64,000 bases of DNA from Gemmatimonadales bacterium (lineage in GTDB: Bacteria > Gemmatimonadota > Gemmatimonadetes > Gemmatimonadales > GWC2-71-9). Numbering within the stretch: position 1 is the first letter of the stretch; every line of letters starts with the position of its first letter. Positions 3,885-61,185 of this stretch are shown piece after piece. Below the pieces are notes generated by a model. It saw nothing but the letters and a program-made list of their open reading frames with translations. It did not search any database and was not told the origin of the DNA. Location of the stretch: assembly GCA_033764505.1 (NCBI GenBank), contig JANRIW010000020.1, forward strand, positions 33,808 to 97,807, written 5' to 3'. The translations under genes and the position numbers were made by a program.

Positions 3885-4342
3885 ACGCCGCCGCGCTCGA
3901 GGCGCTGCGGTCGGTGTGGCGCGAGGAGCTGCCGATCACCAACGCGCTGGGAATCGAAGTGGCGGAGGCGCGTGACGGGGCGCTGGTGCTGCGGATGCCG
4001 CTGGCGCCCAACCGGAATCACAAGGGGACGGCGTTTGCGGGTTCGCTCTCGGCGCTGACCACGCTCGCCGGCTGGAGCCTGCTCTGGCTGGCGCTGCGCG
4101 AGGCCGGGGCCGAGGCGCATGTGGTGATCCAGGATTCGCAGATGCAGTATCTGTTGCCGGTGCATAGCGATGCGCTGGCGACGGCGCTCCCGCCTGCGCC
4201 CGAGGCGATGGCGCATCTGCTCGAATCGCTGCGGCGCCATGGGCGGGGCCGGGTGGGGGTGGAGGTGGTGGTGCGGGATGTGGGGGGGATGGAGGTGGCG
4301 AGGTTTGGGGGGAGGTATGTAGTGGTGAGGGGTGAGGGGTGA
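3881..4342 (+). CDS. hotdog-fold thioesterase (YiiD C-terminal/PaaI-like)
   Basis: GTG start overlapping the previous stop (GTGA). ITNALGIEV...LRMPLAPNRNHKGTAFAGSLSALTTLAGW pattern. The last codons (GEG, stop) lie in a heptamer array. Confidence 0.6.
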   Translation: MNAAALEALRSVWREELPITNALGIEVAEARDGALVLRMPLAPNRNHKGTAFAGSLSALTTLAGWSLLWLALREAGAEAHVVIQDSQMQYLLPVHSDALATALPPAPEAMAHLLESLRRHGRGRVGVEVVVRDVGGMEVARFGGRYVVVRGEG

Positions 4343-4400
4343 ACGGTGAACGGTGAACGGTGAACGGGTTACCAGTGACCAGTAACCAGTAACCAGTGAT
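4324..4400. repeat. in-phase heptanucleotide array, 11 units
   Basis: GGTGAGG x2, GGTGAAC x4, GGGTTAC, CAGTGAC, CAGTAAC x2, CAGTGAT, counted base by base. Confidence 0.9.
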
Positions 4401-4417
4401 CCTGCTATCATCCCAGC

Positions 4418-4906
4418 ATGCGACGCACCCTGCTTCCCCTGATGCTCCTCGCCGGCTGTTCGGCTCCGGCCGCTCCGGCCTTTGACGCCGCCCACCAGGC
4501 CGCGATGGTCGATTCGGTCTCGGCGATGCTCGAGTCCTGGCGCGGCGCGGTGGGGGAGATGGCGGTGGATCGGATCGCCACCTTCTACGCCCCCGACTCG
4601 GCGTTCCGCTGGATCGAGGACGGCGCAACCCGCTACCTGAGCAGCAAAGACATCGGCGAGGCGATCCGCGGGATGCAGGGCTCCATCCGCTCGATGGAGT
4701 TCACCCTGGTGGAGCCGAAGATCTCCCCATTGGCCCCCGGCGTGGCGGTGGTGACCACCGGCTTCACCCAGAAGTTCACCGACACGGCGGGCGTGACCGG
4801 CGGCTACGCGGGCACCATCTCCATGACGGTGGTCCATCGCGACACGGCCTGGCGCTTCCTGGTCGGCCACACCTCCGCGCTGGCCCCCGCGCCGCAGGGT
4901 CGCTAG
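4418..4906 (+). CDS. lipoprotein with NTF2-like (SnoaL/DUF4440-type) fold
   Basis: Lipobox MLLAGCS. About 140 aa of alpha+beta pattern ending VVHRDTAWRFLVGHTS, typical of NTF2-like proteins. Confidence 0.6.
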   Translation: MRRTLLPLMLLAGCSAPAAPAFDAAHQAAMVDSVSAMLESWRGAVGEMAVDRIATFYAPDSAFRWIEDGATRYLSSKDIGEAIRGMQGSIRSMEFTLVEPKISPLAPGVAVVTTGFTQKFTDTAGVTGGYAGTISMTVVHRDTAWRFLVGHTSALAPAPQGR

Positions 4907-4972
4907 GGTTCAGCGATCGTGCCGGGCGGCGTGCCGCCTGGCTCATTGGTCCCAATTCCCCACGTGAGTTCC

Positions 4973-5566
4973 ATGGCCGACACCGAGACCCCCGAAACCC
5001 CCGAGACGCCGGCCGTTCCCGGCGCCTCGCCCATTGCCCAGCGCCTCTTCGACGCCCGGACCATCATCATCTCGGGCGAGATCTCGCAGAAGCTCGCCGC
5101 CCGCGTGATGGCCGAGCTGCTGGCGCTGTCCACGGCATCGTCCGACCCGATCACCATCTTCATCAATTCGCAGGGCGGCCACGTCGAGGCGGGCGACACG
5201 ATCCACGACATGATCCGCTTCGTGACCCCCAAGGTGCGGATCATCGGCACCGGCTGGGTCGCCTCGGCCGGCGCCCTGATCTTCGTGTCGGTGCCGGTGG
5301 GCGACCGCTACTGCCTGCCCAATACCCGCTTCCTGCTGCACCAGCCGGCCGGTGGCGCGGGCGGCACCGCCTCGGACATCGCCATCGAGGCGCGGGAAAT
5401 CGTGAAGATGCGCGAGCGGCTGAACGAGATCTTTGCCCGCGAGACGGGGCAGCCGGTGTCGCGGATCGAGGACGACACCCACCGCAACTTCTGGCTGGGC
5501 GCCGACGAGGCGAAGGCGTACGGGCTGGTGGGGCACATCATCGCGAAGGCGACGGAGCTCCCCTAG
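4973..5566 (+). CDS. clpP: ATP-dependent Clp protease proteolytic subunit
   Basis: [26 protein letters not shown] (catalytic Ser), LLHQP (His) and a conserved C-terminal region. Unusual [14 protein letters not shown]-terminal extension. No clpX adjacent. Confidence 0.9.
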
Positions 5567-5617
5567 CGGGGTGCGGGATCGGGCGGTACACTCTCCGCCC
5601 CCGTATCGAGGTCCCGC

Positions 5618-6596: not shown

Positions 6597-6603
6597 GAAC
6601 AGA

Positions 6604-6670
6604 GGTGAACGGTAAACGGTAAACGGTGAACGGGGGATCGTCCCGTTCACCGTTCACCGTTCACCCTCAC
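6604..6670. repeat. hairpin built from heptamers
   Basis: GGTGAAC GGTAAAC GGTAAAC GGTGAAC GGG - loop - CCC GTTCACC GTTCACC GTTCACC. Confidence 0.9.
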
Positions 6671-8389: not shown

Positions 8390-8671
8390 GTGGTCACTGC
8401 CGTCATCCTCTTTACCGTTGCCCGCGACCGGATCAAGTCGGTCGGCGAGCAGCTCGCCGAAATGCCCGAAGTGAGCGACGTCTTTTCGGTGGCGGGGAAG
8501 TTCGACCTCGTCGCCATCGTGCGCGTGCCCGCCAACGAAGATCTCGCCGACCTGGTGACCGACCGCATGGTGAAGCTCGACGGCATCCGCGAGACGGAGA
8601 CGTTGATCGCGTTCCGCGCGTACTCGCGCAAGGACATTGAGGCGGGGTTTTCGTTGGGGAGCGGGGATTGA
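8390..8671 (+). CDS. stand-alone Lrp/AsnC ligand-binding (RAM) domain protein
   Basis: GTG start 8 nt after GGAG. VSDVFSVAGKFDLVAIVRV...LDGIRETETLIAFRAY. Confidence 0.65.
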   Translation: MVTAVILFTVARDRIKSVGEQLAEMPEVSDVFSVAGKFDLVAIVRVPANEDLADLVTDRMVKLDGIRETETLIAFRAYSRKDIEAGFSLGSGD

Positions 8672-8672
8672 A

Positions 8673-8744
8673 CGAGAAGCGAGAAGCGAGAGGCGATGGT
8701 CGATGATCGATAAGACATCTTCAGCCGCGGCCGTCAGGCCGCGG
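8673..8744. repeat. heptamer array plus CCGCGGCC-GTCA-GGCCGCGG hairpin
   Basis: CGAGAAG x2, CGAGAGG, CGATGGT, CGATGAT, CGATAAG (8673..8714). Hairpin at 8725..8744. Confidence 0.9.
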
Positions 8745-8755
8745 GATGCGCAACG

Positions 8756-10054
8756 ATGAGCGCGCCCGCCACGTCGGGTTGGGCCTCACGCGCCGTCTCA
8801 CCTGACGACGTCGTCAAGCACCTCGCGAGCCGCGACAATGTGTTTGTGCATGGTGCGGCGGCGACGCCGACGACGCTGCTCGATGCGATGGCGCGACGCG
8901 GCGATCTCGAGGGCGTGCGCCTCTACCATCTGCATCTTGAGGGGCCGCTCGCCTTCCTGGAACCCAAGTACGACGGGCAGTTCCGCTCGATCTCGTTGTT
9001 CACGGGGCCGGCGTGTCGCGGGCCGATCGCCGAGGGACGCGCCGACTATGTGCCGATCTTCCTGAGCGACATCCCGTCGCTCTTCACGTCGCGCGACGTG
9101 CCGCTCGACGCGGCGCTGATCCAGCTCTCGCCGCCCGATGCGCACGGCTTCTGCACGCTCGGTCCGTCGGTGGATGCGGCGCGCGCGGCGGTGGACTCGG
9201 CCGCGATCGTGCTCGCGGAGATCAATCATCAGATGCCGCGGACGCACGGCAACGCGTTGGTGCCGCTGTCGCGGCTCACCGCGTACACCATCACCGATCG
9301 TCCGCTGCACGAGCATGGCAACGGGAAGGGCGATGCGGTGACGGCGATGATCGGCGAGCACGTGGCCGCGCTCGTGAACGATGGCGCGACGCTGCAAATG
9401 GGGATCGGCGCGATTCCCGACGCCGTCCTCTCGCGGCTCTTCGACAAGCACGACCTCGGCGTGCACACGGAGATGTTCTCCGATCGCCTGGTGGACCTGG
9501 TCGAGGCGGGGGTGATCACCAACCGTCACAAGCCGACGCAGACCGGCCGGATCTCGACGTCGTTCGTGAACGGGACGCGCCGACTCTTCGACTTCATCGA
9601 CGACAACCCGCTGGTGCACTTCCACGGCTGCGACTGGACCAACGACACGCAGCTGATCTGCAAGATGCCGGGGATGACCGCGATCAATTCGGCCATTCAG
9701 GTGGACCTGACCGGCCAGGTGAATGCCGACTCGATGGGGCACCGGATTTATTCCGGGATCGGCGGCCAGATGGACTTCATCCGGGGCGCGGCCCGGGCGC
9801 CCAACGGCAAGGCGATCATCGCCCTGCCGAGTACGGCGGCCCGGGGGACCATCTCGCGGATTGCCACGGAGCTGAGCTCGGGGGCCGGGGTGGTGACCAC
9901 CCGGGGGCACGTCCATTGGGTGGTGACCGAGTACGGCGCCGTGAACCTGCACGGCCGGACCATCCGGGAGCGGGGGGAGCTGCTGATCTCGATTGCCCAC
10001 CCCGATTTCCAGACGGAGCTGGCGCAGGCGTTGCGGGGGCGGGTGGTGGGGTGA
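8756..10054 (+). CDS. acetyl-CoA hydrolase/transferase family protein (4-hydroxybutyrate CoA-transferase-like)
   Basis: 432 aa with LQMGIGAIPDAV, HTEMFSD, SGIGGQMDF and VTTRGHVHWVVTEYG blocks. Confidence 0.9.
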   Translation: MSAPATSGWASRAVSPDDVVKHLASRDNVFVHGAAATPTTLLDAMARRGDLEGVRLYHLHLEGPLAFLEPKYDGQFRSISLFTGPACRGPIAEGRADYVPIFLSDIPSLFTSRDVPLDAALIQLSPPDAHGFCTLGPSVDAARAAVDSAAIVLAEINHQMPRTHGNALVPLSRLTAYTITDRPLHEHGNGKGDAVTAMIGEHVAALVNDGATLQMGIGAIPDAVLSRLFDKHDLGVHTEMFSDRLVDLVEAGVITNRHKPTQTGRISTSFVNGTRRLFDFIDDNPLVHFHGCDWTNDTQLICKMPGMTAINSAIQVDLTGQVNADSMGHRIYSGIGGQMDFIRGAARAPNGKAIIALPSTAARGTISRIATELSSGAGVVTTRGHVHWVVTEYGAVNLHGRTIRERGELLISIAHPDFQTELAQALRGRVVG

Positions 10055-10199: not shown

Positions 10200-10210
10200 T
10201 TGTCGTTTCA

Positions 10211-10577
10211 GCGAACGGCGAACGGCGAACGGTGAGGGGTGAGGGGTTTCCAGAAGGTGTCATCCTGAGCGAAGCAGCCCGAAGGGCTGCGCAGTCGAAG
10301 GACCTGCGTGATGGTAGATGGGCTGGGATCCGGTGCTCCCCGCCGCGACCGGAAGCCTCGGAACAGGAACCCGGGCGGGCTCGGCGCAGGGGTGTTCTTC
10401 GCAGCGGCTCCAAGGGCGGCGAGCCCGGAGCGATGCCCCCAGCCGCGCATGTCAATGCGCGGCGCCGGCGCAGCCGGCGTGAAGACGCGGCGAGCCGCTT
10501 TGGAGTCCGCGAGAACGGACACCCCAGGTCGAGCCCGCTGTACGGAACATCCCGGCCCTCGGTCCTCGGTCCTCGGT
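10211..10577. repeat. composite: heptamers, half GTCATCCTGAGCG element, ~180-nt palindromic element, heptamers
   Basis: GCGAACG x3 and GTGAGGG x2 (10211..10245). GTCATCCTGAGCGAAGC...GTCGAAGGACC from 10259. Palindromic element core at 10371..10557. CCTCGGT x3 at 10557..10577. Confidence 0.85.
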
Positions 10578-10623
10578 TGCTATTAGATTCGGCGTCCGTT
10601 CCCCCTCTCTGCGGAGTCCCGAC

Positions 10624-12274: not shown

Positions 12275-12280
12275 TTTTTC

Positions 12281-12388
12281 GAGAAGCGAGAAGCGAGAAG
12301 CGAGAGGCGAGAGGCGAGAGGCGAGAAGGAGCGGGGTGCCGCGGAATGATCTTTCCGCAGCACCCCGCTTCTCGCTTCTCGCTTCTCG
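12281..12388. repeat. long heptamer-armed hairpin between convergent genes (likely bidirectional terminator)
   Basis: GAGAAGC x3, GAGAGGC x3, GAGAAGG, AGCGGGGTG - inner hairpin GCGGAA/TTCCGC - CACCCCGCT, TCTCGCT x2, TCTCG. Confidence 0.85.
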
Positions 12389-13435
12389 TTACTTGATGGA
12401 CTGCATCTCAATCACAAACCGATACTTCACATCACTCTTCAGCATCCGCTCGTAGGCGGTGTTGATCTCCTGCATCGGGATCTTCTCGATGTCGGCGGTG
12501 ATGTTGTGCTTCCCGCAGAAGTCGAGCATCTCCTGCGTCTCCTTGATGCCGCCGATGAGCGAGCCGGCGATGCTCCTGCGGCCAAAGATCATCCCCATGA
12601 CGCCAGGGGAAGGATGTGGCGTGGCCGGGACGCCGACCAGGACCATGGTGCCGTCGCGCTTCAGCGCGCCGATGAACGGGTCGAGGTTGTGCGGCGCGGC
12701 GACGGTGTTGAGGATGAAGTCGAACTGCCCTGCGGCTGCGGCCATCGCGCCGGCGTCGGTGCTGATGATCACGTGGTGCGCGCCGAGCGCCTTGGCGTCG
12801 GCCACCTTGCTGGGCGAGGTGGTGAAGACCGTCACGTCGGCGCCCATCGCGGCGGCGAGCTTGACGCCCATGTGACCGAGGCCGCCGAGGCCGACGACGC
12901 CGACCGTGCTCCCCTTGCCGACCTTCCAGTGGCGAAGCGGCGAGTAGGTGGTGATGCCGGCGCAGAGGAGCGGCGCGGCCGCGGCGAGGTCGAGGTTGGA
13001 CGGCACCCGGAGCACGAAGGCCTGGTCGACGGTGATGTCGGTGGTGTAGCCGCCGTACGTCGGGCCGCCGGTGTGCTTGTCCACGCTCATGTAGGTGCCG
13101 ACGAAGCCGCTGCCGGTGCAGTAGTTCTCCAGCCCTTCCTGGCACGAGGAGCAGGTGCGGCAGGAATCGACCATGCAGCCGACGCCGACGGTGTCACCGA
13201 CCTTGAAGTCCTTCACGTCGCTGCCCACCGCCGTCACGTGCCCCACGATCTCGTGACCCGCGATCGCCGGATACGGAATCGGGCCCCAGTCGCCCTTCAG
13301 GAAGTGCAGGTCGGAGTGGCAGACGCCGCAGTAGACGATGTCGATCGCGACGTCGGTCGGACCAGGGGCGCGGCGGGTGATGGTGTGGGGGGCAAGCGGG
13401 GTGTCGGGCGAGAAGGCGGCAAAGGCGTTGGTCAT
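12389..13435 (-). CDS. NAD(P)-dependent zinc alcohol dehydrogenase (cinnamyl-ADH/YahK-like)
   Basis: GVCHSDLH, GHEIVG, structural-zinc cluster CRTCSSCQ, Rossmann motif VGVVGLGGLGHMGV. Internal ATG 13435 chosen over the long ORF start. Confidence 0.9.
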   Translation of the reverse strand: MTNAFAAFSPDTPLAPHTITRRAPGPTDVAIDIVYCGVCHSDLHFLKGDWGPIPYPAIAGHEIVGHVTAVGSDVKDFKVGDTVGVGCMVDSCRTCSSCQEGLENYCTGSGFVGTYMSVDKHTGGPTYGGYTTDITVDQAFVLRVPSNLDLAAAAPLLCAGITTYSPLRHWKVGKGSTVGVVGLGGLGHMGVKLAAAMGADVTVFTTSPSKVADAKALGAHHVIISTDAGAMAAAAGQFDFILNTVAAPHNLDPFIGALKRDGTMVLVGVPATPHPSPGVMGMIFGRRSIAGSLIGGIKETQEMLDFCGKHNITADIEKIPMQEINTAYERMLKSDVKYRFVIEMQSIK

Positions 13436-14000: not shown

Positions 14001-14029
14001 GGTGGGTGAGGCATGTCATCCTTGATTCC

Positions 14030-14050
14030 CGTTCACCGTTCACCCCTCAC
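14030..14050. repeat. short heptamer array
   Basis: CGTTCAC x2, CCCTCAC. Confidence 0.7.
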
Positions 14051-14057
14051 CCTGCTT

Positions 14058-14831: not shown

Positions 14832-14840
14832 GGCATCCGT

Positions 14841-15045
14841 CGAGAAGCGAGAAGCGAGCAACGAGCAGCGAGCAGCGTCGGAAGGTTGTCATCCTGAGCG
14901 GAGCCCGCGGAGCGGGCGAAGTCGAAGGACCTCGGCGCCCGGAGAGAGGTCCTTCGACTGCGCACCCCTTCGGGGTGCTTCGCTCAGGATGACACGCCGG
15001 GGTAGGGCCACGCTTCTCGCATCACGCTTCACGCTTCACAATCAT
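14841..15045. repeat. composite: heptamers / full GTCATCCTGAGCG multi-hairpin element / inverted heptamers
   Basis: CGAGAAG x2, CGAGCAA, CGAGCAG x2. Element at 14888..14993. CGCTTCT, CGCATCA, CGCTTCA x2. Confidence 0.9.
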
Positions 15046-16400: not shown

Positions 16401-16620
16401 TTCAGCCGCGGCCGTCAGGCCGCGGTGAGGGGTGAGGGGGGGCATCGCTCCGGGCTCGCCGCCCTTGGAGCCGCTGCGAAGGACACCCCAGCGTCGAGCC
16501 CGCACGCAGAGGTCCTTCGACTGCGCAGCCCTACGGGCTGCTTCGCTCAGGATGACAACCTCTCTGTCCTCCATCATCCATCAGCGCTGTTCGCTGTTCG
16601 CTGTTCGCCGTTCGCTGTCA
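16401..16620. repeat. composite: CCGCGGCC hairpin, GTGAGGG x2, half palindromic element, half GTCATCCTGAGCG element, GTTCGCT heptamers
   Basis: Hairpin at 16406..16425. Half element at 16452..16503. GAGGTCCTTCGACTGCG...CGCTCAGGATGAC at 16509..16556. Heptamers at 16568..16620. Confidence 0.85.
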
Positions 16621-17596
16621 CCACCACACTCCCCCGCTTCCTCCCGCTCTCCACGCGCGCATGCGCCGCCACGATCTCGTCGAGCGGCAGGCACCGATCG
16701 ATCAGCGGCGTGAAGCGTCCTGCGGCCGCCATGGCGACGATGGTGCGGAGGTCGTCCACCCGCTCGGCAGCGGGACCGGCGATGACGCGGTGGTGCGTGG
16801 TGAGGCGGACCCAGGGCGCGCGGAGCATTTCGGGGAGCGTGGCGAGGACGGCGAGGAGTTTGCCGCGTGGCGTGAGTGCGTGGCGCACCCGCGCGTAGGG
16901 CGCGTTGCCGACGGTGTCGGCGATGAGGTCGTAGCGAATCCCTTCGGCGGCGAAGTCGGTGGTGGTGTAGTCCACCACGCGTGCGGCGCCAAGGTAGCGC
17001 ATGAGTGCGGCGTTGGCACCGCTGCAGACCGCGGTGACCTCCGCGCCGGCGGCCACGGCCACTTGCAGCATCGCCGAGCCGACGGTTCCGGAGGCGCCGT
17101 TGATCAGGACGTTCTGGCCGCCGCGCAGTTCGCCGCGACGAAAGAAGTCGATTGCGGTGGTGCCACCAAAGGGGAGTGCCGCGGCCGACTCATAGGCGAG
17201 GTGCGCTGGCTTGTGCACCACCACCCCGTCGGCGGCGATGCAACAGTACTCGGCGTGCGCGCCGAGCTTGATGCCGGCAGAGGCGATGACGGCATCGCCC
17301 ACGGCGAAGTTCGTGACCGACGCCCCGATGGCCACCACGTCACCGGCGAGCTCGCTGCCGAGGATGGGCTGACGCGGTGCCGTGAGGCCGAAGGCAAGCC
17401 GACTGAGGAGGCCGAAGCCGCGCGGCACCGTGAGGCTCCGTATCCGCCAGTCGGCCGACGACACGGTGGTCGCGCGCACGCGGATCAGCAGCTCGGTGGG
17501 GCCGGGGACGGGCGTGAGCACATCCCCGACCGACACCACCTCCGGCGGGCCATAGCGCCGGTAGACTGCCGCCCGCATGTAGACCGCTTGGGTCAT
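16574..17596 (-). CDS. MDR-family NAD(P)H quinone oxidoreductase-like protein
   Basis: 340 aa with an MDR N-terminal GroES-like region and the Rossmann motif INGASGTVGSAMLQVA. The C-terminal ANGEQRTANSADG is encoded by a repeat array. Confidence 0.85.
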   Translation of the reverse strand: MTQAVYMRAAVYRRYGPPEVVSVGDVLTPVPGPTELLIRVRATTVSSADWRIRSLTVPRGFGLLSRLAFGLTAPRQPILGSELAGDVVAIGASVTNFAVGDAVIASAGIKLGAHAEYCCIAADGVVVHKPAHLAYESAAALPFGGTTAIDFFRRGELRGGQNVLINGASGTVGSAMLQVAVAAGAEVTAVCSGANAALMRYLGAARVVDYTTTDFAAEGIRYDLIADTVGNAPYARVRHALTPRGKLLAVLATLPEMLRAPWVRLTTHHRVIAGPAAERVDDLRTIVAMAAAGRFTPLIDRCLPLDEIVAAHARVESGRKRGSVVVTANGEQRTANSADG

Positions 17597-18511: not shown

Positions 18512-19162
18512 ATGCCCACATCACGACGGTCTCCGCTCACCCGGGAGCGCGTCCTCCGCGCGGCCGTGCGCCTGGCCGACAAGCAGGGTCTCGACGCCCT
18601 CTCGATGCGCCGGCTCGCGGCCACGCTCAAGGTCGAGGCGATGTCGCTCTACAATCACGTCGCCAACAAGGACGATGTCCTCGACGGGATGGTGGACCTG
18701 ATCATCGGCGAGATCACGCTGCCCACCCCCGGCGACGACTGGAAGGCGGCGATGCGTGCGCGCGCGACCTCCGCGCACGCGGTGATGCTGGCGCATCCCT
18801 GGGCGCCGATGCTGGTGGTGTCGCGCATCACCATCGGTCCCAACCGGCTGCGCTACATCGACGCCACCCTCGGCGTGCTGCGCCAGGCCGGGCTGTCATG
18901 GGCCGAGACCGATCGCGCGTGGACTGCGATGGACAGCTACATCTACGGCTTCACGCTGCAAGTACAGAACTTTCCCATCGATCCCGAGGAATACGCATCT
19001 GCCGCCGCGAGCTACCTGCCGATGCTCCCCGCCGAGACGTATCCGTACATGCATGAACTCTCGAAGTGCGTGGCCGAAGGCTCACACGACGGGACGCATG
19101 ACTTTGGGTTCGGGCTGGAGTTGATTCTGGATGGGTTGGAAGGGATGATGGATGATCGATGA
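18512..19162 (+). CDS. TetR/AcrR-family transcriptional regulator
   Basis: HTH LSMRRLAATLKVEAMSLYNHVANKDDVL with a TetR-type C-terminal helical domain. The last codons (MMDDR) lie in a heptamer array. Confidence 0.85.
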   Translation: MPTSRRSPLTRERVLRAAVRLADKQGLDALSMRRLAATLKVEAMSLYNHVANKDDVLDGMVDLIIGEITLPTPGDDWKAAMRARATSAHAVMLAHPWAPMLVVSRITIGPNRLRYIDATLGVLRQAGLSWAETDRAWTAMDSYIYGFTLQVQNFPIDPEEYASAAASYLPMLPAETYPYMHELSKCVAEGSHDGTHDFGFGLELILDGLEGMMDDR

Positions 19163-19490
19163 TCGAGAATCGAGAAGCGAGATGCGAGAGGCGAGGGGCG
19201 AGAGATTGTCATCCTGAGCGGAGCGACGGCGTAGCCGTCGCGAAGTCGAAGGACCTCTATCCGTGCGCTGCGGGCCCGGCCTGGGGTGTCCGTTCTCGCG
19301 GACTCCAAAGCGGCTCGCCGCGTCGTCCCCTATACAGCACGCCGGGGGCGCCGCAATCGGCACTCCGTCCCAGGCTGATGGCTCGCCGCCCTTGGAGCCG
19401 CTGCGAAGAACACCCCAGCGCCGAGCCCGCCCATGCTTCTCGCTTCTCGATCATCGATCATCGATCATCGATCATCGCTGTTCGCCGTCC
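19144..19490. repeat. 347-nt nested palindromic composite filling a whole intergenic region
   Basis: Left arm: GATGATG, GATGATC x2, GAGAATC, GAGAAGC, GAGATGC, GAGAGGC, GAGGGGC, GAGAGAT. Half GTCATCCTGAGCG element at 19208..19257. Palindromic element at 19270..19435 (inverted). Right arm: GCTTCTC x2, GATCATC x4, GCTGTTC, GCCGTCC. Confidence 0.9.
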
Positions 19491-20010: not shown

Positions 20011-20112
20011 CGATCAGCGAACGGCGAACGGCGAACGGTGAACGGGCCAGAGGGTGTCATCCTGAGCGAAGCCCCGCCCCCGCAGGGCGGCGGGGCGAAG
20101 TCGAAGGACCTC
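20011..20112. repeat. heptamers plus half GTCATCCTGAGCG element
   Basis: CGATCAG, CGAACGG x3, TGAACGG. Element at 20056..20112. Confidence 0.85.
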
Positions 20113-20368
20113 TCTCAAGGCGCATAGCTCATCTTGTGACGCCCACCCCCGTCCCCACTTGCACCATACCCTGGGGGTGTCACAGCGGCGTCAACACCGG
20201 GTCCCCCTGTGGAATCCCACAGAAATTCCGTAGGCGGGGCACTGTCACACCCCTGAGACATACTACGGGCCCCATTGGCGATCGGATTGCCCCCGGGGGT
20301 GGGGAGCCGAATCCGCCACCCCCTCCGGGGTGGGGCTAGACTTGAAGGGCGATTCACGCTGCCCCACG

Positions 20369-20403
20369 CTCACGACTCAGGACTCACGACTCATGACTCA
20401 GGA
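20369..20403. repeat. heptamer array containing a start codon
   Basis: CTCACGA, CTCAGGA, CTCACGA, CTCATGA, CTCAGGA. ATG 20393 lies in unit 4. Confidence 0.85.
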
Positions 20404-21932: not shown

Positions 21933-22063
21933 GCGAAGCCCGCGAAGCGGGCGAAGTCGAAGGACCTCCCTCCTGGCGAGCCTAGCACAGGTCCTTCGAC
22001 TGCGCAGCCCTGCGGGCTGCTCCGCTCAGGATGACACTTTTCGGACCTACGACCTACGACTCT
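21923..22063. repeat. full GTCATCCTGAGCG multi-hairpin element plus heptamers
   Basis: Element at 21923..22036. GGACCTA CGACCTA CGACTCT. Confidence 0.9.
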
Positions 22064-22774: not shown

Positions 22775-22853
22775 GATGCTGGTGGGTACCCGTGGGGGCG
22801 GAGATCGATCCGGACGTCTTGTATGCGTAGGTGCATGCATCCCAGTGAGCATA

Positions 22854-26704: not shown

Positions 26705-26709
26705 CCTCG

Positions 26710-44794: not shown

Positions 44795-45056
44795 GCGGAG
44801 CGAAGGACCTGCGTGATCGTGAACGGGCTGGGGTTCTGTGCATTCGGAATCACGCAGGTCCCTCGCTTCGCTCGGGATGACAGATTTTCGGGTAGGTCCT
44901 TCGACTTCGTCCGCTTCGCGGACTCCGCTCAGGATGACAACGCTTCGCGGGCTTCGCTCAGGATGACCATCCCCCCGTGCCCAACATCCCTCACCTATCA
45001 TCCATCATCAATCATTTATTATCAATCATCCATCATCCATCATCCATCACGATCTC
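44785..45056. repeat. cluster of full and partial GTCATCCTGAGCG elements followed by an AT-richer heptamer array
   Basis: Elements at 44785..44881, 44894..44938 and 44939..44967. CCTATCA, TCCATCA, TCAATCA, TTTATTA, TCAATCA, TCCATCA x3, CGATCTC (44994..45056). Confidence 0.85.
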
Positions 45057-48549: not shown

Positions 48550-48942
48550 TTACCGCCCCTTGTGCGCCCGAAACTCGACCTTCGGCAGCGTCTTGAAATC
48601 TTCATCCTGTGTCCAGAGCGTCCCGCCCACCGCCTGCGTCGTCGCGTAGACAATGCTGTCGGCCAGGGCGAGCCCTTGTCGCCTGCCGAGCGTCGCGGCG
48701 TCGACCGCGAGCTGATCGTCGAGGGGCACGACCGTGGCCTGGCGCATCTGCGCGAGCACGTCAGGGATGATGGCACGTCGCCCCTGCGCGTCGAGCCGGC
48801 GCACGACCTCCGAGATCACAATCGTCGGCACGACCAAGGTGCGCACCGTCTCAATGGCGGCGGCGAATTCACCCGCATTGGGGCCGTCGGCGAGATACTC
48901 GAGCCAGGCGGATGAATCGACCACGTTAGACACGGTCGGCAT
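48550..48942 (-). CDS. vapC: PIN-domain toxin
   Basis: VVDSSAWLEY..., LALADSIVYATT, LWTQDEDF acidic PIN residues. A GTG at 48924 is an alternative start. Confidence 0.8.
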   Translation of the reverse strand: MPTVSNVVDSSAWLEYLADGPNAGEFAAAIETVRTLVVPTIVISEVVRRLDAQGRRAIIPDVLAQMRQATVVPLDDQLAVDAATLGRRQGLALADSIVYATTQAVGGTLWTQDEDFKTLPKVEFRAHKGR

Positions 48943-49830: not shown

Positions 49831-49893
49831 CCTTCGTTCGCCGTTCACCTTACACCGCTCACCCCTCACCCCTCACCCCTCACCCCTCACCAA
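49831..49893. repeat. heptamer array ending in (CTCACCC)x4
   Basis: CCTTCGT, TCGCCGT, TCACCTT, ACACCGC, CTCACCC x4, CTCACCA. The complement is (GGGGTGA)n. Confidence 0.9.
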
Positions 49894-49970: not shown

Positions 49971-50612
49971 ATGCGACAGGACTATACCGATGTGACCGTG
50001 GTGCTCGACCGGTCGGGGAGCATGGCGAGGATTCGCGCGGACATGGAGGGCGGTTTCGCCTCCTTCGTGAAGCAGCAGCAGGCGCACCCCGGCCGTTGCC
50101 TGGTCACGATGGTGCAATTCGATGGGCAGGCCACCGAGGTGCGCTACGCCGGCGTTCCCATTGCGCAGGTCGGCCCCCTCGACCTGCAGCCGCGCGGGAG
50201 CACCCCGTTGCTCGACGCCACCGCGTTCAGCGTGCGCACCACCGGCGATCGCCTCGCCGCGCTCCCCGAGCCTGAACGGCCGGCGCAGGTGCTGGTGCTC
50301 ATCATCACCGATGGGCGGGAGAATGCCTCGCGCCACACCACCTCTGCGCAGCTGCGCGCCATGATCGAGCACCAGCGCTCCGTCTACAACTGGGAGTTCA
50401 TCTACCTCGGCGCCAACGTGGATGCCTTCGCCGAGGGTGGCAGGATGGGGATTCCGGCGACGCACAACGTGAACTTCGATGCCGATGCCGAGGGGGTGCA
50501 GGCGTCGTGGTCGGTGGTGGAGGAGAAGCTGCGCCGGTATCGGGGTGGCGATCGGAAGGCGCTGGAGTTTGTGGCGGAGGAGCGGAAGCGGATGAAGAAG
50601 GGTGAGGAGTGA
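49971..50612 (+). CDS. von Willebrand factor A domain protein
   Basis: ATG after AGGAGG. MIDAS VVLDRSGSM, then GSTPLLDA and LIITDGREN. Confidence 0.75.
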   Translation: MRQDYTDVTVVLDRSGSMARIRADMEGGFASFVKQQQAHPGRCLVTMVQFDGQATEVRYAGVPIAQVGPLDLQPRGSTPLLDATAFSVRTTGDRLAALPEPERPAQVLVLIITDGRENASRHTTSAQLRAMIEHQRSVYNWEFIYLGANVDAFAEGGRMGIPATHNVNFDADAEGVQASWSVVEEKLRRYRGGDRKALEFVAEERKRMKKGEE

Positions 50613-50800
50613 GGGGTGAGGGGTCGTATGTCGTAAGTCGTAGGTCGTAGGTCGGAAGCGTTGTCATCCTGAGCGAAGCAGCCTGAAAGGCTGCGGAGTC
50701 GAAGGACCTCTCTCCGAGCGCGTCGGGAAGAGGTCCTTCGACTTCGCCCGCTTCGCGGGCTTCGCTCAGGATGACAATTGTCCCCCTCACCGCGGCCTGA
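50601..50800. repeat. composite: heptamers / full GTCATCCTGAGCG element / half CCGCGGCC hairpin
   Basis: GGTGAGG, AGTGAGG, GGTGAGG, GGTCGTA, TGTCGTA, AGTCGTA, GGTCGTA, GGTCGGA. Element at 50663..50776. Confidence 0.9.
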
Positions 50801-51062: not shown

Positions 51063-51593
51063 ATGTCCATTGTCACTCCCGCCCCGTGGGAAGCGTACGG
51101 GCTCCCCGACCACCAGCTCGCCACCATCTTCGCCGCGATCGATCGCCACGCCGTGCTGCTGCGTCGCGATCACCCCGACCTCGTGGTGCCCGGCACCGGC
51201 TGCCGCGGCCAGCACCTCATCGCGGGGCCGTTCACCGTGGGGGCACTCGCCGCCATGTGGCAGGACGCCCCCGAATGGTTCACCGGCACCTGCTCCGTGT
51301 GCGGCGGCGCCGCGCGCGGCACCCATGTGTCGGGGATGCTCGCCAACGGGGGAATCACCGGCTGGTGCCTCTCCTGCGGCGTGGCCCTCAAGCGCTTCGT
51401 GGGCGGACTGCCGCGGGTGCTGGCGCTGCTCCCCGAGGAGGCGCGCGAGCAACTCTTCAGCACCGCCCCAGGGCTGGAAATCGAGATCGATGGCGGGTTG
51501 TTCGTCACGCGACCGGCGCAGGGCGGGTGGCGGCCGCCGGCACGGGAGGTGAGTTGGGAGCCGTTGCTGGAGGTGTTGAGTCGTGAGGCGTGA
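51063..51593 (+). CDS. hypothetical protein with CxxC...CxxC zinc-ribbon-like segment
   Basis: 176 aa. CSVCGGAARG...WCLSCG. Confidence 0.5.
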   Translation: MSIVTPAPWEAYGLPDHQLATIFAAIDRHAVLLRRDHPDLVVPGTGCRGQHLIAGPFTVGALAAMWQDAPEWFTGTCSVCGGAARGTHVSGMLANGGITGWCLSCGVALKRFVGGLPRVLALLPEEAREQLFSTAPGLEIEIDGGLFVTRPAQGGWRPPAREVSWEPLLEVLSREA

Positions 51594-51805
51594 GGTCGTA
51601 GGTCGTAAGTCGTAAGTCATAGGTCGTAGGTCGAAAGCCTTGTCATCCTGAGCGTAGCCCGCGAAGCGGGCGGAGTCGAAGGACCTGCGTGATGGTGGAT
51701 GGGCCGGCGTTCTGCTCATTCTCGATCACGCAGGTCCCTCACTGCGTTCGGGATGACATTGTCATCCTCCAACATCTATCATCCATCATCTATCATCCAT
51801 CTTCC
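51581..51805. repeat. composite: GTCGTAG-type heptamers / variant element / CATCCAT-type heptamers
   Basis: Heptamers at 51581..51640. Element at 51642..51757. Then a GTCATCCT head and CATCTAT/CATCCAT units. Confidence 0.85.
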
Positions 51806-52203: not shown

Positions 52204-52204
52204 C

Positions 52205-52478
52205 CGGTGAACGGTGAACGGTTAACGGTGAACGGGGCGCGGCCGTTGGCCGCGCGGGGTGAGGGGTGAGGGGGGCATGTCATCCTGAGCGAAGCAGCCT
52301 GAAGGGCTGCGAAGTCGAAGAGCCTGCCCTGAACGAAGTGAAGGGACCTCTCTCCGAGCGCGTCGGGAAGAGGTCCTTCGACTGCGCGACGGCTACGCCG
52401 TCGCTTCGCTCAGGATGACATTATCCATCATCCCCCTCACCCCTCACCCCTCACCGCGGCCTGACGGCCGCGGCTGAC
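52205..52478. repeat. composite: GGTGAAC heptamers, GC hairpin, enlarged GTCATCCTGAGCG element, CCCTCAC heptamers, CCGCGGCC hairpin
   Basis: Element at 52279..52419 with an extra arm. Hairpin at 52454..52473. Confidence 0.85.
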
Positions 52479-52829: not shown

Positions 52830-52905
52830 GGGGGAAAGGTAGCCACGCCGTGACACTCTCCCGCGCAACCCTCCGTAGAGAGCGCACCTCCTTCCCGGAA
52901 CTCCC

Positions 52906-53344: not shown

Positions 53345-53780
53345 CGGCGAACAGCGAACAGCGAACGGCGATCAGGGATGATCGATGATCGATGATCGGT
53401 GATCGAGAAGCGAGAAGCGAGAAGCGAGAAGCGAGAAGCATGGGCGGGCTCGGCGCTGGGTGTCCTTCGCAGCGGCTCCAAGGGCGGCGAGCCCTCACCC
53501 TGGGTCGGAGTGTCGATTGCGGCGCCCCCGGCGTGCTGTATAGGGGGCGACGCGGCGAGCCGCTTTGGAGTCCGCGAGAACGGACACCCCAGGTCGAGCC
53601 CGCTGTACGGAACATCCCGGCCCATTCGTCATCACGCAGGTCCCTTCACTTCGTTCAGGGCAGGCTCTTCGACTTCGCGCCGGCTGCGCCGTCGCTTCGC
53701 TCAGGATGACAACGCTTGGGCTGCTCCGCTCAGGATGACAACCCGGTAACTGTTCGCCGTTCGCTGTTCACCGTTCGCTG
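53345..53780. repeat. 436-nt composite: heptamers, palindromic element copy, partial GTCATCCTGAGCG elements, heptamers
   Basis: CGAACAG/GATGATC/GAGAAGC units. Palindromic element at 53439..53621. CGCTCAGGATGAC tails at about 53690..53740. TGTTCGC/CGTTCAC units. Confidence 0.85.
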
Positions 53781-59059: not shown

Positions 59060-59112
59060 CGCGCCGGCGCGTCGCGTGTACACTCTATCTCCCCCCCTGA
59101 GATGGAGCCGGC

Positions 59113-59895
59113 GTGACGGAAGTGCATGGCGGAGTCGGGCGATTCGTGTCGTGGGATGGCGGCTGTCTCTTCATCGGCGAGAAGGTCGGCCTCGTCCCGC
59201 CGCATTCCCACTATGCCATCCAGGTGGTCTTCGGCTCCGAGCCCGGCGTGAAGCTGAGCCCGGATGCCGAGTCGCCTTGGCAGGCGTATGGTGGTGCCAT
59301 CATCGCCTCGCGCCAGCCGCATACGATGGACGCGCACGGCCTCCCCGTGAATGCGGTGATGTTTGTGGAACCGGAGACGCGCGAGGGGCGTGCGCTGATC
59401 GAGCATCATCTCGATCAGGGGATCACGCCGATGCCCGAGTCGTTCTATGCCCAGCGCGGCGAAGTCTTCGAGCAATATTTCAAGGGTGATAACGACGCAT
59501 TGGTCGCGGCGGCGCGTCAGTTCCTGAGCGTGCTCACCGATGGCGTGCAGCCGCAGATGGTCACCGACGAACGGATCCTCCGCGCGGTGCGCTACATCAA
59601 CCTGCACCTCACGCGGCCGCTGACGCTCGAGGAGGTGGCGCGCGAGGCGTGTCTCTCGCCGAGTCGGTGCCGGCACCTGCTCGTGGAGCAGCTGGGGATG
59701 GGGCTGCGGCACTACGTGTTGTGGCGGCGCTTCCTCCGCGTGTGGCAGCTGCTGTCGGAAGGCGCTTCGCTCTCGGAAGCGGCCCACGCGGCGGGCTTTG
59801 CCGATGCGCCGCATCTGGCCCGCACGTCGCGCCGGAACTTCGGCTTTCCGCCGTCGATGATGATCGTGGGGCCGAAGAAGGAGCCGACGCCGTAG
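59113..59895 (+). CDS. AraC-family transcriptional regulator
   Basis: GTG start. C-terminal double HTH LTLEEVAREACLSPSRCRHLL ... AAHAAGFADAPHLARTSRRNFG. Confidence 0.8.
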   Translation: MTEVHGGVGRFVSWDGGCLFIGEKVGLVPPHSHYAIQVVFGSEPGVKLSPDAESPWQAYGGAIIASRQPHTMDAHGLPVNAVMFVEPETREGRALIEHHLDQGITPMPESFYAQRGEVFEQYFKGDNDALVAAARQFLSVLTDGVQPQMVTDERILRAVRYINLHLTRPLTLEEVAREACLSPSRCRHLLVEQLGMGLRHYVLWRRFLRVWQLLSEGASLSEAAHAAGFADAPHLARTSRRNFGFPPSMMIVGPKKEPTP

Positions 59896-59896
59896 G

Positions 59897-60177
59897 CGGC
59901 GAACGGCGAACGGCGAACAGCGAACGGCGATGATCGATGATCGATGATCGATGATCGAGATATTGTCATCCTGAGCGAAGCGTTCTCCAAGGTTTGTCAT
60001 CCTGAGCGAAGCAGCCTGAAAGGCTGCGCAGTCGAAGGACCTCTATCTACGTGCTCCGGAGAGAGGTCCTTCGACTGCGCGCCGGCTGCGCCGTCGCTTC
60101 GCTCAGGATGACAATCCGTTGAGCACGGCATCGACCATCGATCATCGACCATCGATCATCCATCATCCATCATCGAC
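59897..60177. repeat. composite with double-headed GTCATCCTGAGCG element
   Basis: CGAACGG/GATGATC heptamers. Element at 59965..60112 with two GTCATCCTGAGCGAAGC heads. Then ATCGACC/ATCATCC heptamers. Confidence 0.85.
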
Positions 60178-60192
60178 CGTCTACATTCCCCC

Positions 60193-60948
60193 ATGCCTCT
60201 CTCCCTCCGCACCGATCTCGGCCCCATCACCACGCTCGACGATTGGGCCGCCGCCATCCCCCCCAAGCAGTGGAAGGACGGCCGCAGCGCGCGCGAGTTG
60301 GCTCGCGCCTGGTGGCCCACCGCGCGCCGGCCCGCCGAGCCGGCGGAGTTCGCCGCGCTGCTCGACAGCGGCGGCTTCGTTGGCTTGACGCTGGACACGG
60401 TGCACGTCCATGCCGCCATCCTGGTCGACGACACCACCTGGCATGCCGACCTGGCCATCCACGCGCACTGCGAAGATGGTCCGCTCGCCATCGTGGTCGA
60501 GGCCGTGGCCGATGAGCGCTTCGGCGACCGGCTCGGCAACGTGCTGGTCGACGCGGCCCGCCAGATCGGCCGCGACGAGCCGTCGCCCGTGGTCGAGCGC
60601 GTGCAACGGCGGGCCGCGGCCCTGCTGCCGCCGTGGAAGGCCGGGCTGCCGCACCTCGAGGAGCTGCGCCACGACCTGCTGATGGGCGCAGCCGCCACGA
60701 TGGCGTTCGCCACCTCGATCGGTGCCACGCGCGCCCTCTATATAGTGCACGAGCTGGTGCATCTCGATCGCACCAAGGAATCGGATCGGCGGAAGAACCG
60801 CGAGGACCTCGATCTGCTGGTGCGGCGGTTGAGTCACGGCGAGGAGGAGCGGCTCACGCGCGGGGTGCTGCTCGGCTCGACGCTGGTGCCCGGGTATCCG
60901 GAGATCCCGCTGCAAGTGGGGAAGGCGAGGCGGGATTTGGACAGGTGA
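60193..60948 (+). CDS. hypothetical protein
   Basis: 251-aa ORF with balanced composition. HADLAIHAHCEDGPLAIVVEAVADERFG faintly resembles a nuclease core but lacks the Lys. Confidence 0.55.
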   Translation: MPLSLRTDLGPITTLDDWAAAIPPKQWKDGRSARELARAWWPTARRPAEPAEFAALLDSGGFVGLTLDTVHVHAAILVDDTTWHADLAIHAHCEDGPLAIVVEAVADERFGDRLGNVLVDAARQIGRDEPSPVVERVQRRAAALLPPWKAGLPHLEELRHDLLMGAAATMAFATSIGATRALYIVHELVHLDRTKESDRRKNREDLDLLVRRLSHGEEERLTRGVLLGSTLVPGYPEIPLQVGKARRDLDR

Positions 60949-61185
60949 CGGCGAACGGCGAACGGCGAACAGCGAACGGCGATGATGGATGATCGATGAT
61001 CGATGATCGGGAGATTGTCATCCTGAGCGGAGCGACGGCGAAGCCGGCGCGCAGTCGAAGGACCTCTCTCCGGGCCTCCCGGCAAGAGGTCCTTCGACTG
61101 CGCAGCCTTTCAGGCTGCTCCGCTCAGGATGACAACCTCTCGGTCCCCGGTCCTGGCGGTTCGCCGTTCGCCGTTCGCTGTTCGC
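60949..61185. repeat. composite: heptamers / full element / inverted heptamers
   Basis: GCGAACG/GATGATC units. Element at 61017..61133. GTTCGCC/GTTCGCT units. Confidence 0.9.

Follow-up and report, generated by a model that had tools for sequence, protein, structure and literature searches.

Dense heptanucleotide arrays make up gene-end hairpins in an uncultured Gemmatimonadales bacterium

Introduction

What builds long runs of seven-nucleotide units in the spacers of a bacterial genome, and what keeps them there? The question is raised by a 64-kb stretch of DNA (the window; contig JANRIW010000020.1) from an uncultured Gemmatimonadales bacterium of soil or water, in which in-phase heptanucleotide arrays recur from spacer to spacer, arranged around palindromes at gene 3' ends. 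A sequence-only reading of this DNA had proposed that the units mutate stepwise, that the arrays usually come in inverted pairs extending the stems of a central palindrome, and that repeats of this kind belonged to no described class known to it. The analysis reported here identifies the arrays as heptanucleotide microsatellites, a very dense case of the described class of intergenic heptameric simple sequence repeats (SSRs). These arrays change locally and quickly, by duplication, loss and point mutation of units. The account that we favour, with about as much doubt as belief, is that slippage makes the arrays, that their two arms are kept complementary and that the resulting hairpins act at transcript 3' ends much as REP (repetitive extragenic palindromic) elements do. 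Sequence-specific recognition of the units is the main and serious rival of this account; a neutral by-product of mutation, contingency or G-quadruplex loci, and Chi-like sites are lesser ones. Each is weighed below, together with the observations that bear on it.

Abundance and extent of the heptanucleotide arrays

To be scored as an array, a stretch needed at least three in-phase 7-nt units and no more than a single mismatch in each 7-nt step; first-order Markov shuffles served as control, and spacers were told from genes by a codon-bias gene map. The window holds 49 such arrays, where the shuffles average 0.13 (maximum 1), and Tandem Repeats Finder (TRF) returned some 60 rows of period 7 between 4.3 and 61.2 kb. 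At periods of 8 to 12 the same scan found no arrays, while it returned 11 at period 5 and 9 at period 6. The 49 arrays merge into 35 compound arrays that cover 1,427 nt in about 20 spacers. Most of these bases (1,267, or ~89%) are intergenic, and the remainder overlap the last codons of genes. Outside an array-free island described below, arrays make up ~15% of spacer DNA, as compared with 0.4% of genic DNA.

The units are strictly in phase and drift one step at a time, as had been claimed. The example quoted for this drift, from GATGATC to GAGGGGC, reads exactly so at 19141-19204, where the units are GATGATG GATGATC GATGATC GAGAATC GAGAAGC GAGATGC GAGAGGC GAGGGGC. Mismatches between in-phase units rise from 0.76 at lag 1 to 1.15 at lag 2 and reach ~2.7 from lag 6 on, and pure blocks are also present, for instance 10 x GGGTCAC and then 7 x AGGTCAC. 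Mismatch that rises with lag, combined with pure blocks, is the signature of local duplication. Autocorrelation of the spacers is 0.359 at lag 7 and 0.350 at lag 14 over a baseline of ~0.27, and falls to 0.272 at lag 7 once the arrays are masked; genes show period 3 only. Since the masked spacers lie at baseline, there is no background of decayed arrays.

Array lengths fall off monotonically (40 arrays at 3 units, 33 at 4 and 19 at 5), with no preference for multiples of three. The suggestion that the repeats present one face of the DNA, three units being equal to 21 bp or two helical turns, is not borne out. The longest unbroken in-phase run has ~22 units (22930-23084), and the maximum of 33 contiguous units given earlier is reached by adding the inverted block 22842-22918 across a non-repeat centre.

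These largest arrays bear on the possibility that the repeats are contingency or structure-forming loci, in which copy number would tune a promoter or 5' untranslated region (5'-UTR), or G-rich units would fold into G-quadruplexes. Those at 22842-23084 fill a divergent spacer with pure blocks typical of recent expansion, and heptameric SSRs in promoters or 5'-UTRs drive phase variation in Haemophilus influenzae (PMC12721329). The 7-bp repeats upstream of the Haemophilus hmw genes would be the model for such tuning. However, most arrays stand at 3' ends, the genes that they accompany are ordinary metabolic ones, and of the 48 window arrays only ~7 have units with a run of at least three G, which is lacking in the main units CGGTGAA, CGGCGAA, GCGAGAA and CGATGAT. 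We regard such a role as very improbable.

Polarity, consensus and position of the arrays

The basic locus is a palindrome at the 3' end of a gene, composed of a purine-rich array, a GC-rich centre and a complementary pyrimidine-rich array. In its simplest form it is a hairpin of arrays alone, as at 6604-6667 and 12279-12390 and likewise in the related loci L007, L008 and L012, for instance (GACGATA) x6 / GC hairpin / (TATCGTC) x5. In 23 of 23 inverted pairs from six sequences, it is the 5' arm that is rich in purines and the 3' arm that is rich in pyrimidines, a polarity that by symmetry holds for both strands (P = 1e-7 under independence of the pairs, which are not fully independent). The earlier view that inverted pairs are usual has to be narrowed, since strict complementarity to a partner array of three or more units is seen in only about one third of the arrays. 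What stands is the order: wherever a window spacer holds both kinds, purine-rich arrays precede pyrimidine-rich ones. Furthermore, the consensus units of the window, L006 and L012 align to S-S-G-N-G-A-N (for example CGGTGAA, CGGCGAA, GCGAGAA and CGATGAT), with GA invariant in 62 of 62 units and an information content of 6.4 bits, as compared with 4.1 (at most 4.4) when the letters of the units are shuffled.

Chi sites are known as short, polar sequences rich in G. The purine-rich heptads, which face the palindrome centre on both strands, could be conceived as Chi-like guards that would stop RecBCD/AddAB resection starting from breaks at the hairpins, such as those made by SbcCD. The polarity found in all 23 pairs is exactly the orientation that such guards would require, but the many unit types make a single Chi sequence unlikely, and we find the idea hardly credible.

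The arrays are anchored at stop codons. For 30 of the 39 purine-rich arrays examined in five genomes, the 5' neighbour is the stop of a gene, and 25 of the 39, all among these 30, start between -22 and +8 nt from the stop codon; gaps between arrays and start codons are mostly 5-107 nt. Two further readings were tried and rejected. Stop triplets, which would make the arrays backup stop codons in all three frames, occur on the purine strand in 58 of 98 arrays as compared with 36.5 when shuffled, but in only 15 of 34 distinct units, so that the excess is due to a few abundant units. Pairing with an assumed 16S 3' tail (anti-Shine-Dalgarno) is worse for the purine arrays than for letter-shuffled ones (-8.0 versus -9.7 kcal/mol).

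In silico, the composites fold with free energies (dG) of -41 to about -200 kcal/mol and z-scores (z) down to -26, in line with the claim that the arrays extend palindrome stems. Strong structure (z < -4) is found in 5 of 7 convergent spacers, 8 of 27 tandem ones and 0 of 9 divergent ones (Fisher p = 0.005 between convergent and divergent spacers, and 0.039 when every spacer with a 3' end is set against the divergent ones). The two arms also mirror each other in their internal order: at 19141 and 19435 the succession of GATGATC and then GAGAAGC is mirrored, and the variant GACGTTA/TAACGTC occurs in both arms of an L007 locus. When compared with known RNA families, the window gave only tRNA-Phe at the gathering score of Rfam 15; at E<=10 there were generic long-hairpin (miRNA precursor) matches, far below gathering.

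Distribution and turnover among relatives

The closest available relatives were found through the acetyl-CoA hydrolase gene at 8756-10054, whose top matches are Gemmatimonadales metagenome-assembled genomes (MAGs) at 83, 82 and 74% amino acid identity; exact-protein look-ups of two further window genes gave no record. Two of these MAGs, L005 and L006, are syntenic with the window at ~80% nucleotide identity, and the gene order at 0-18 kb is conserved at that level. Counted per 21 kb of locus, L006 has 8 arrays, with units common to the window (CGAGAAG, CGATGAT, GGTCACT), L012 has 6, and L007 and L008 have 16 and 20, with units GACGATA, GGTGAAT and CGCCTGT. The vocabulary of units thus goes by lineage, the window, L006 and L012 sharing CGAGAAG, CGATGAT and GGTGAAC, and L007 and L008 sharing GACGATA and GGTGAAT. 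No arrays were found in the more distant Gemmatimonadales loci L010, L011, L013, L019 and L031, nor in most other phyla of the set. Outside the order, one Opitutaceae locus carries a few array pairs, with the same purine-to-pyrimidine polarity, and two Vicinamibacteria loci carry a few unpaired arrays. Exact triples of GGTGAAC and CGAGAAG occur in 16 and 13 IMG/VR contigs, respectively, at 42-71% GC, many of them with further period-7 arrays. The phenomenon is therefore lineage-patchy and not unique to this genome, and the period-7 signal extends beyond the window, as the sequence-only reading would have it.

At a given site the arrays differ even among close relatives. The gene ending at 6596 is followed by a GGTGAAC hairpin in the window, by one of GTGACCA units in L006 and by none in L005; after tRNA-Phe, the unit types differ among the window, L005 and L006. 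After a gene of 158 codons, (CGAGAAG)n is present in the window and in L006, and L005 has a doublet of the GTCATCC element (see below) without arrays. Four Logan contigs encoding the identical 158-aa protein (L001-L004) all stop ~30 nt into this CGAGAAG array, which indicates that the arrays fragment k-mer assemblies of this lineage, and in one of them, L003, a fourth CGAGAA unit stands in the place of the CGAGAGG of the window.

Near strains also differ by the swapping or loss of entire composites. In the near strain L085 (Ga0073900_10012114), whose coding DNA is 92-97% identical to that of the window, the gene ending at 53343 is followed by a different composite, 97% identical to window 52212-52275. 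The same contig joins this gene directly to the homologue of 60193-60948, the 53.4-60.2 kb segment of the window being missing; since L085 is a short-read contig, such long-range joins represent either real rearrangement at repeats or an assembly chimera. Where the window has a 49-nt spacer (52857-52905), L085 (323-1225) has a 900-nt toxin-antitoxin insertion, coding for a Gp49/HigB-like toxin and an HI1420-type antidote and bounded by a (CGGCGAA)(GATGAT) array. The differences of L085 and L003 from the window confirm that the arrays vary between strains.

On the other hand, much is retained over a larger distance. At 4-fold degenerate sites the identity between L007 and L008 is only 63%, yet for 15 of the 16 L007 arrays the orthologous L008 spacer holds an array. 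In one pair of loci (L007 18912-18970 and L008 18402-18445), the central GC hairpin between GACGATA arrays is reverse-complemented, with a compensatory A-T to G-C change, as would be expected if inverted arrays mediate DNA inversion. Another central hairpin of L007 and L008 has kept its stem and not its loop.

Distribution and turnover together invite the view that the arrays are a functionless by-product of frequent 7-nt slippage, expanding where they are harmless, next to stops, and purged from genes and promoters, with the hairpins merely seeding and tolerating them. Such a by-product would reach stop codons and stay short of start codons, as the arrays do, and would be absent from genes and rare between divergent genes. 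It would also turn over rapidly, the close relative L005 having lost or never gained most arrays, and would not yet have entered a recently acquired island; for the comparable repeats of Xanthomonas no regulatory role was found (PMC4692102). However, unit sequences and a shared consensus are conserved, polarity is strict, arms are complementary and compound arrays mirrored, and no decayed remnants are seen. Slippage alone also leaves the inverted pairing unexplained. We therefore consider pure by-product status improbable.

Origin and possible role of the array hairpins

In the account that we favour, the arrays would grow by replication slippage. Template switching inside the palindrome, selection for the stem or a combination of the two may keep the arms complementary. 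The hairpins, to judge by their position, would be strand-symmetric stem-loops at 3' ends, ending or protecting the mRNAs of both flanking genes. REP biology as 3'-end stem-loops is the source of this functional analogy. The account draws on the excess of period 7 and the signature of local duplication, on the anchoring at stop codons, on the hairpins of convergent and tandem spacers, and on the polarity, the mirrored arms and the turnover between strains and species. It draws further on the occurrence of arrays without the REP-like element, on their absence from the acquired island and on the like syndrome published for Xanthomonas and Nostoc (PMC4692102). A consensus scan of 4-24 kb, also counted in its favour, found 5 canonical intrinsic terminators as compared with 5.1 expected, none of them at composites; a recognisable terminator follows the tRNA-Phe gene only.

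Several observations weigh against this account. The SSGNGAN consensus and the conserved vocabulary are not predicted by a purely structural role and hint at sequence-specific recognition. Moreover, the identical consensus unit is kept at orthologous sites in 10 of the 16 L007-L008 arrays, against a neutral expectation of 0.04 per unit. In six tandem spacers, the sense strand is the more stable one in two and the less stable one in four; with no consistent folding-energy advantage, selection on sense-strand RNA was rejected, and nothing points to RNA-level over DNA-level selection. The hairpins lack U-tracts. Of the array sets, the two largest (22842-23084 and 20015-20404) occupy divergent spacers that contain promoters. 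Finally, the 3'-end bias could merely reflect where insertions are tolerated.

The conserved consensus leads to the main rival, according to which the heptads are sequence-specific recognition sites, either for a lineage-specific DNA- or RNA-binding protein or for a transposase that would use the arrays as terminal inverted repeats, the array hairpins then being non-autonomous mobile elements. In the protein version each subunit might bind one unit, by analogy with the omega ribbon-helix-helix (RHH) repressor or with the cold-shock domain, which contacts 6-7 nt. Omega, from plasmid pSM19035, binds contiguous 7-bp heptads, whether direct or inverted, each protein dimer reading one unit. It is a precedent for a 7-bp binding register, but its heptads have the sequence WATCACW, are few, and all lie upstream of plasmid promoters.

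In favour of recognition stand the consensus with its invariant GA, the lineage-specific vocabulary and the conservation of units at orthologous sites beyond neutrality. If the arms were the terminal inverted repeats of one family, the polarity of the 23 pairs would follow automatically. Further points in its favour are one compound array that recurs with its variant unit at 53345, 59896, 60947 and L085:326, the window composite that sits 3' of a different gene in L085, and the lack of a decayed background after masking. However, no candidate protein has emerged; a Pfam scan of the ~50 predicted window proteins, which represent a small fraction of the genome, found no transposase, including none of the REP-associated Y1 (RAYT) kind. 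Although the arms behave as inverted repeats, in the manner of miniature inverted-repeat transposable elements (MITEs), no target-site duplications are visible at 6604, at 12279 or at the simple hairpins of L008 and L012, and no clean empty site could be aligned. Many unit types coexist in one genome, and some orthologous sites carry different units. Finally, the same polarity occurs in the Opitutaceae locus and, as "convergent" pairs are read, in Xanthomonas (PMC4692102), which speaks for a general cause and against one element family. Collectively, these points make recognition unlikely, if still to be taken seriously. Its fullest form, in which the heptads are a recognition code and a candidate protein or transposase builds and maintains the purine-to-pyrimidine array pairs around gene-end hairpins, seems to us less likely again.

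Relation to known heptameric repeats

Intergenic heptameric repeats have reportedly been described since 1990, under the name of short tandemly repeated repetitive (STRR) sequences. Some units of the window (ACCAGTG, GACCAGG, GGTCACG) resemble the STRR units CCCCAGT and TTGGTCA. In cyanobacteria, the STRR sequences are summarised as tandem heptamers dispersed in the non-coding DNA of particular lineages (PMC4679880, PMC4692102). According to the summary in PMC4679880, heptanucleotides came first in abundance among the long SSRs with units of 5-11 nt studied by Mrazek (2007), and polymerase slippage was proposed as their origin. The arrays of the window share the heptanucleotide unit, the location in non-coding DNA and the restriction to lineages, whereas their host is high-GC and non-cyanobacterial, and purine-to-pyrimidine hairpins and anchoring at stop codons are documented here.

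A close counterpart is found in Xanthomonas, with ~185 arrays of the GGGAATC type whose units are heterogeneous and most often number about 4 (range 2-26) (Rehm et al. 2015, PMC4692102). There, 89-93% of arrays are intergenic, with 28 nt as their mean distance to the upstream ORF (open reading frame), and they are rare between divergent genes; ~70-75 of them (~40%) form convergent inverted pairs able to fold into stem-loops; and their length and sequence differ between Xcc and Xac (PMC4692102). The counterpart repeat in Nostoc is GGGGAYT (PMC4692102). Heterogeneous units, an intergenic share of about 90%, proximity to 3' ends, convergent pairs and rarity in divergent spacers are common to these repeats and the present ones. 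They differ in that many unit types coexist here in one genome where one dominates there; most of the present units are not G-quadruplex-capable, so that the arrays stand outside the G-quadruplex subclass (GGGAATC/GGGGAYT), which has a run of at least three G per unit. Different units are here joined in phase as compound arrays, the arrays abut the stop codon (0-8 nt as compared with the mean of 28 nt), and palindromic elements and MITEs are nested in the centres. The phylum, Gemmatimonadota, is also a different one; literature searches for repeats of Gemmatimonadetes gave nothing relevant and no report for it.

In marine Beggiatoaceae as well as in cyanobacteria and Bacteroidetes, direct TAACTGA repeats (2-6 copies, up to 43) are likewise abundant intergenic heptamers scattered sporadically across phyla (PMC4679880). 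These consist of a single unit just upstream of start codons, with 169 direct sets as compared with 1 indirect set, and binding of S1, Csp or CsrA was proposed (PMC4679880); the present arrays lie on the stop-codon side and in inverted pairs. With REP sequences, bacterial interspersed mosaic elements (BIMEs) and REPINs, the hairpins formed by REP doublets, the likeness is that of extragenic palindromes at 3' ends, set in inverted doublets whose fold is a long hairpin (PMC3116915); it applies here to the GTCATCCTGAGCG element. However, REPs are not tandem 7-nt arrays, and in relatives the arrays occur without a REP-like element. What the arrays share with the published intergenic heptameric SSRs, namely exact 7-nt tandem units, a dispersed spacer bias, placement at 3' ends and between convergent genes, and variation between genomes, assigns them to this known class. 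The claim of an undescribed class is thereby not supported.

Palindromic elements nested between the arrays

In the window, the palindrome centres are mostly filled by a separate family, the GTCATCCTGAGCG element (GTCATCC element), of the form TGTCATCCTGAGCG-RAGC-(inner hairpin)-GCG-NAGTCGAAGGACCTC. Good copies number 28, as compared with 3.6 expected for the 13-mer. In an alignment read by eye, the invariant flanks GTCATCCTGAGCG...GTCGAAGGACC enclose five discrete types of inner hairpin with compensatory differences. RNAalifold did not recover the inner hairpin from the GTCATCC alignment, because the five types align poorly. Doublets of the element are arranged as "+-" in eight cases and as "-+" in none (for instance 14888-14993, 21923-22035 and 61017-61133). 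It is thus the GTCATCC element that has the REPIN-like organisation, the palindrome doublet of REP, BIME and REPIN sequences, which the heptamer arrays do not show.

The element has no Rfam match, so that a ribozyme (hammerhead or other) in the GTCATCC...CUGAGCG sequence was rejected, and literature searches gave nothing relevant. On the reverse strand its hairpin loops read as tetraloops of UUCG/UACG type, and single copies are present in loci of Myxococcota, Verrucomicrobiota and Acidobacteria (L036, L045, L055, L062). CGATGAT arrays followed by GTCATCCTGAGCG (59923-59976 and 60978-61028) give weak matches to archaeal C/D-box small RNA models via UGAUGA/CUGA boxes; with 15-20 bits as compared with gathering scores of 36-50, they are regarded as chance.

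A second nested family, MITE-2, is a MITE-like element of 165 nt with inverted ends of ~38 nt (GGGGTGTCCGTTCTCGCGGACTCCAAAGCGGCTCGCCGC...). Its copies, which are 79-96% identical and nested in array composites, lie at 10373-10538, 16453-16503 (partial), 19270-19435 and 53439-53603, and in L085 at 4024-4085. A third, small repeat, CTTCAGCCGCGGCCGTCAGGCCGCGG, is a GC hairpin found at 8722-8745 and 16401-16424, and both copies adjoin arrays.

In every composite the arrays are outermost and the GTCATCC elements or MITE-2 lie inside. L007 and L008, with their high array densities, have only 1-2 GTCATCC elements each, and L085 keeps the left array of the composite at 60947, including its CAGCGAA variant, without the doublet there. 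Arrays that occur without the REP-like element cannot be parts of it, in agreement with the view that they are not simply a REP/BIME-type family. The array hairpins appear to be older, other palindromic elements having presumably been inserted into their centres later.

Organization of the individual loci

Simple array hairpins are found at two window loci. The first, at 6604-6667, begins 7 nt past the stop at 6596 and consists of (GGTGAAC/GGTAAAC) x4.3, an 8-nt centre and (CCGTTCA) x3.3, with dG -40.9/-50.6 and z -8/-10.5. The second, at 12279-12390 between convergent genes, has (CGAGAAG/CGAGAGG) x7, a GC-rich central stem-loop of 14 bp and (CGCTTCT) x3.3 (dG -77.9, z -11.5). A short convergent spacer at 14001-14057 has GGGTGGGTGAGG on its left and (CCGTTCA) x2.3 with CCCTCACCC on its right, the latter adjoining the stop at 14058.

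Three loci consist of direct arrays on the forward strand or of a lone array. At 4321-4399 (+), a compound array of GGTGAGG x2.7, GGTGAAC x4.3 and ACCAGTA x3.9 overlaps the end of ORF 3881-4342 and lies 5' of the gene at 4418. Just 5' of it, at 4240-4320 and within the same predicted, doubtful ORF, is an extremely G-rich tract of 80 nt (GGGTGGGGGTGGAGGTGGTGGTG...), for which TRF gives loose periods of 6, 15 and 27 nt. At 8671-8715 (+), CGAGAAG x3.4 followed by CGATGGT/CGATGAT stands directly past the stop of gene 8390-8671, and at 49853-49892 (+) a lone pyrimidine-rich array, (CACCCCT) x5.6, lies 5' of the gene at 49971.

Other loci are composites with nested elements. After tRNA-Phe, at 10205-10580, (GCGAACG) x3 and (GGTGAGG) x2.4 precede a GTCATCC element (+, 10259) and MITE-2, and (CGGTCCT) x3.6 closes the locus. 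The composite at 14838-15042 has (CGAGAAG) x2, (CGAGCAG) x3, the +/- doublet at 14888-14993 and (CACGCTT) x4 (dG -122.9, z -8.4). At 16420-16620, (GGTGAGG) x2.3, the partial MITE-2 and a GTCATCC element (-, 16556) are followed by (CGCTGTT) x4.9, which extends into the last codons of gene 16574-17596 (-). The drift example belongs to the composite at 19141-19479: its left arm passes from GATGATC over GAGAAGC to GAGGGGC, a GTCATCC element (+, 19208) and MITE-2 fill the centre, and the right arm mirrors the left with (GCTTCTC) x2 and (GATCATC) x4.4; a stop codon (19160-19162) lies inside the array.

Further composites crowd the right part of the window. At 50600-50775, (GGGTGAG) x3.6 and (GGTCGTA) x4.7 stand at the stop of gene 49971-50612 and are followed by a +/- doublet (50663-50775). 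The composite at 51577-51805 has (GTCGTAG) x7.6 from the stop codon at 51593, a doublet (51642/51757) and (CATCATC/CATCTAT) x6 (dG -97.4). Between convergent genes at 52204-52457, (CGGTGAA) x4.4 directly past the stop at 52203 is followed by a small GC hairpin, (GGGGTGA) x2.6, a doublet at 52279-52419 and (CCCCTCA) x3.3 (dG -166.3, z -9.4). The composite at 53345-53780, 1 nt past the stop at 53343, is composed of (GCGAACA) x4, (GATGATC) x4.3, (CGAGAAG) x5.1, MITE-2, two GTCATCC (-) elements and (GTTCGCC) x3.9. An entire spacer is filled at 59896-60178: (CGGCGAA) x4.9 and (CGATGAT) x4.4 begin at the first base past the stop (59895) and are followed by GTCATCC elements at 59965+, 59996+ and 60112- and by (CATCGAT/CATCGAC) x6.9 (dG -157, z -12.5). 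At 60947-61186, the left compound array almost repeats the one at 59896, down to the CAGCGAA variant unit, and is followed by the doublet at 61017-61133 and (GTTCGCC) x3.9 (dG -178, z -26).

Doublets also occur with few arrays or none. Without arrays they are found at 21923-22035 (+/-, convergent genes, z -8.3) and, as a GTCATCC-type doublet, at 61918-61990, 3' of gene 61281-61907. At 26596-26705, the doublet 26596-26686 is accompanied by (CACCGTT) x3, which ends 4 nt from the stop of gene 26710-29502 (-).

Two divergent spacers with large arrays have no strong overall hairpin. That at 20015-20404 (z -1.2) contains (GCGAACG) x4, a GTCATCC element (+, 20056), ~250 nt of other sequence and (CTCACGA/CTCAGGA) x5. 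The largest arrays, at 22842-23084 (z -0.2), comprise (ACCAGTG/ACCAGGG) x11, a short non-repeat centre of ~11-15 nt (22915/22919-22929), GGTCACG x10, GGTCACA x7 and (TCACGTC) x4.4, the arms being imperfectly complementary.

The array-free island and other features of the window

Between 31100 and 43900 lies a low-GC (55-62%) restriction-modification and defence island of 13 kb, which has neither arrays nor GTCATCC elements and serves as a negative control inside the window. Its genes code for an EVE-HNH protein, a DUF6339 protein, an EcoRII-like endonuclease, a Z1-domain protein and two C5 cytosine methyltransferases, of which one carries an HTH domain, and several ORFs have no Pfam match. Freedom from the repeats of the genome suggests that the island was acquired horizontally and recently. 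Its left edge (30787-31040) is marked by the pyrimidine-rich arrays CTGGTCA x4, TCTCACG x3.6 and GTTCGCT x6. Between these array blocks, at 30870-30945, is a short coding-looking fragment (...IPIGSVLVIDGRIVGRGHNQRVQ*), by eye like the N-terminus of a cytidine or tRNA deaminase and possibly a gene remnant from the insertion of the island. The right edge (44785-45050) has a cluster of GTCATCC elements (44785+, 44881-, 44938-, 44967-) followed by (CCATCAT/ATCCATC) x10.

From 44 to 62 kb there are many small accessory-type genes (glyoxalase, PhnA, lumazine-binding, SnoaL-like, HD, GNAT-like), as well as a PIN-domain toxin gene at 48550-48942 (-). Each of the accessory-type genes has a composite hairpin at its 3' side, an arrangement that superficially resembles a cassette array but lacks attC features. 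Integron attC sites were rejected: the 3' arms read GTTCACC/GTTCGCC, so that positions 4-6 are not RRR (R' = GTTRRRY), the boxes are in tandem at a 7-nt period instead of 7+5+7, no integrase was found in the window, and gene order is conserved.

Significance of the heptanucleotide arrays

In this lineage the heptameric-repeat phenomenon is extreme and unusually easy to read, with a hairpin in nearly all long spacers at 3' ends. In practice, the arrays break short-read assemblies and mark the junctions of rearrangements between strains, which affects the quality of Gemmatimonadota MAGs and the calling of gene 3' ends. Models of these repeats are constrained by their polarity, by their start at stop codons, by the conservation of units despite a fast turnover of copy number and by the palindromic elements nested within. 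If the heptads proved to be a recognition code, heptameric SSR hairpins would form a distinct, actively maintained class of elements, and STRR sequences, the Xanthomonas repeats and the arrays described here would have a common explanation, which would include their shared polarity.

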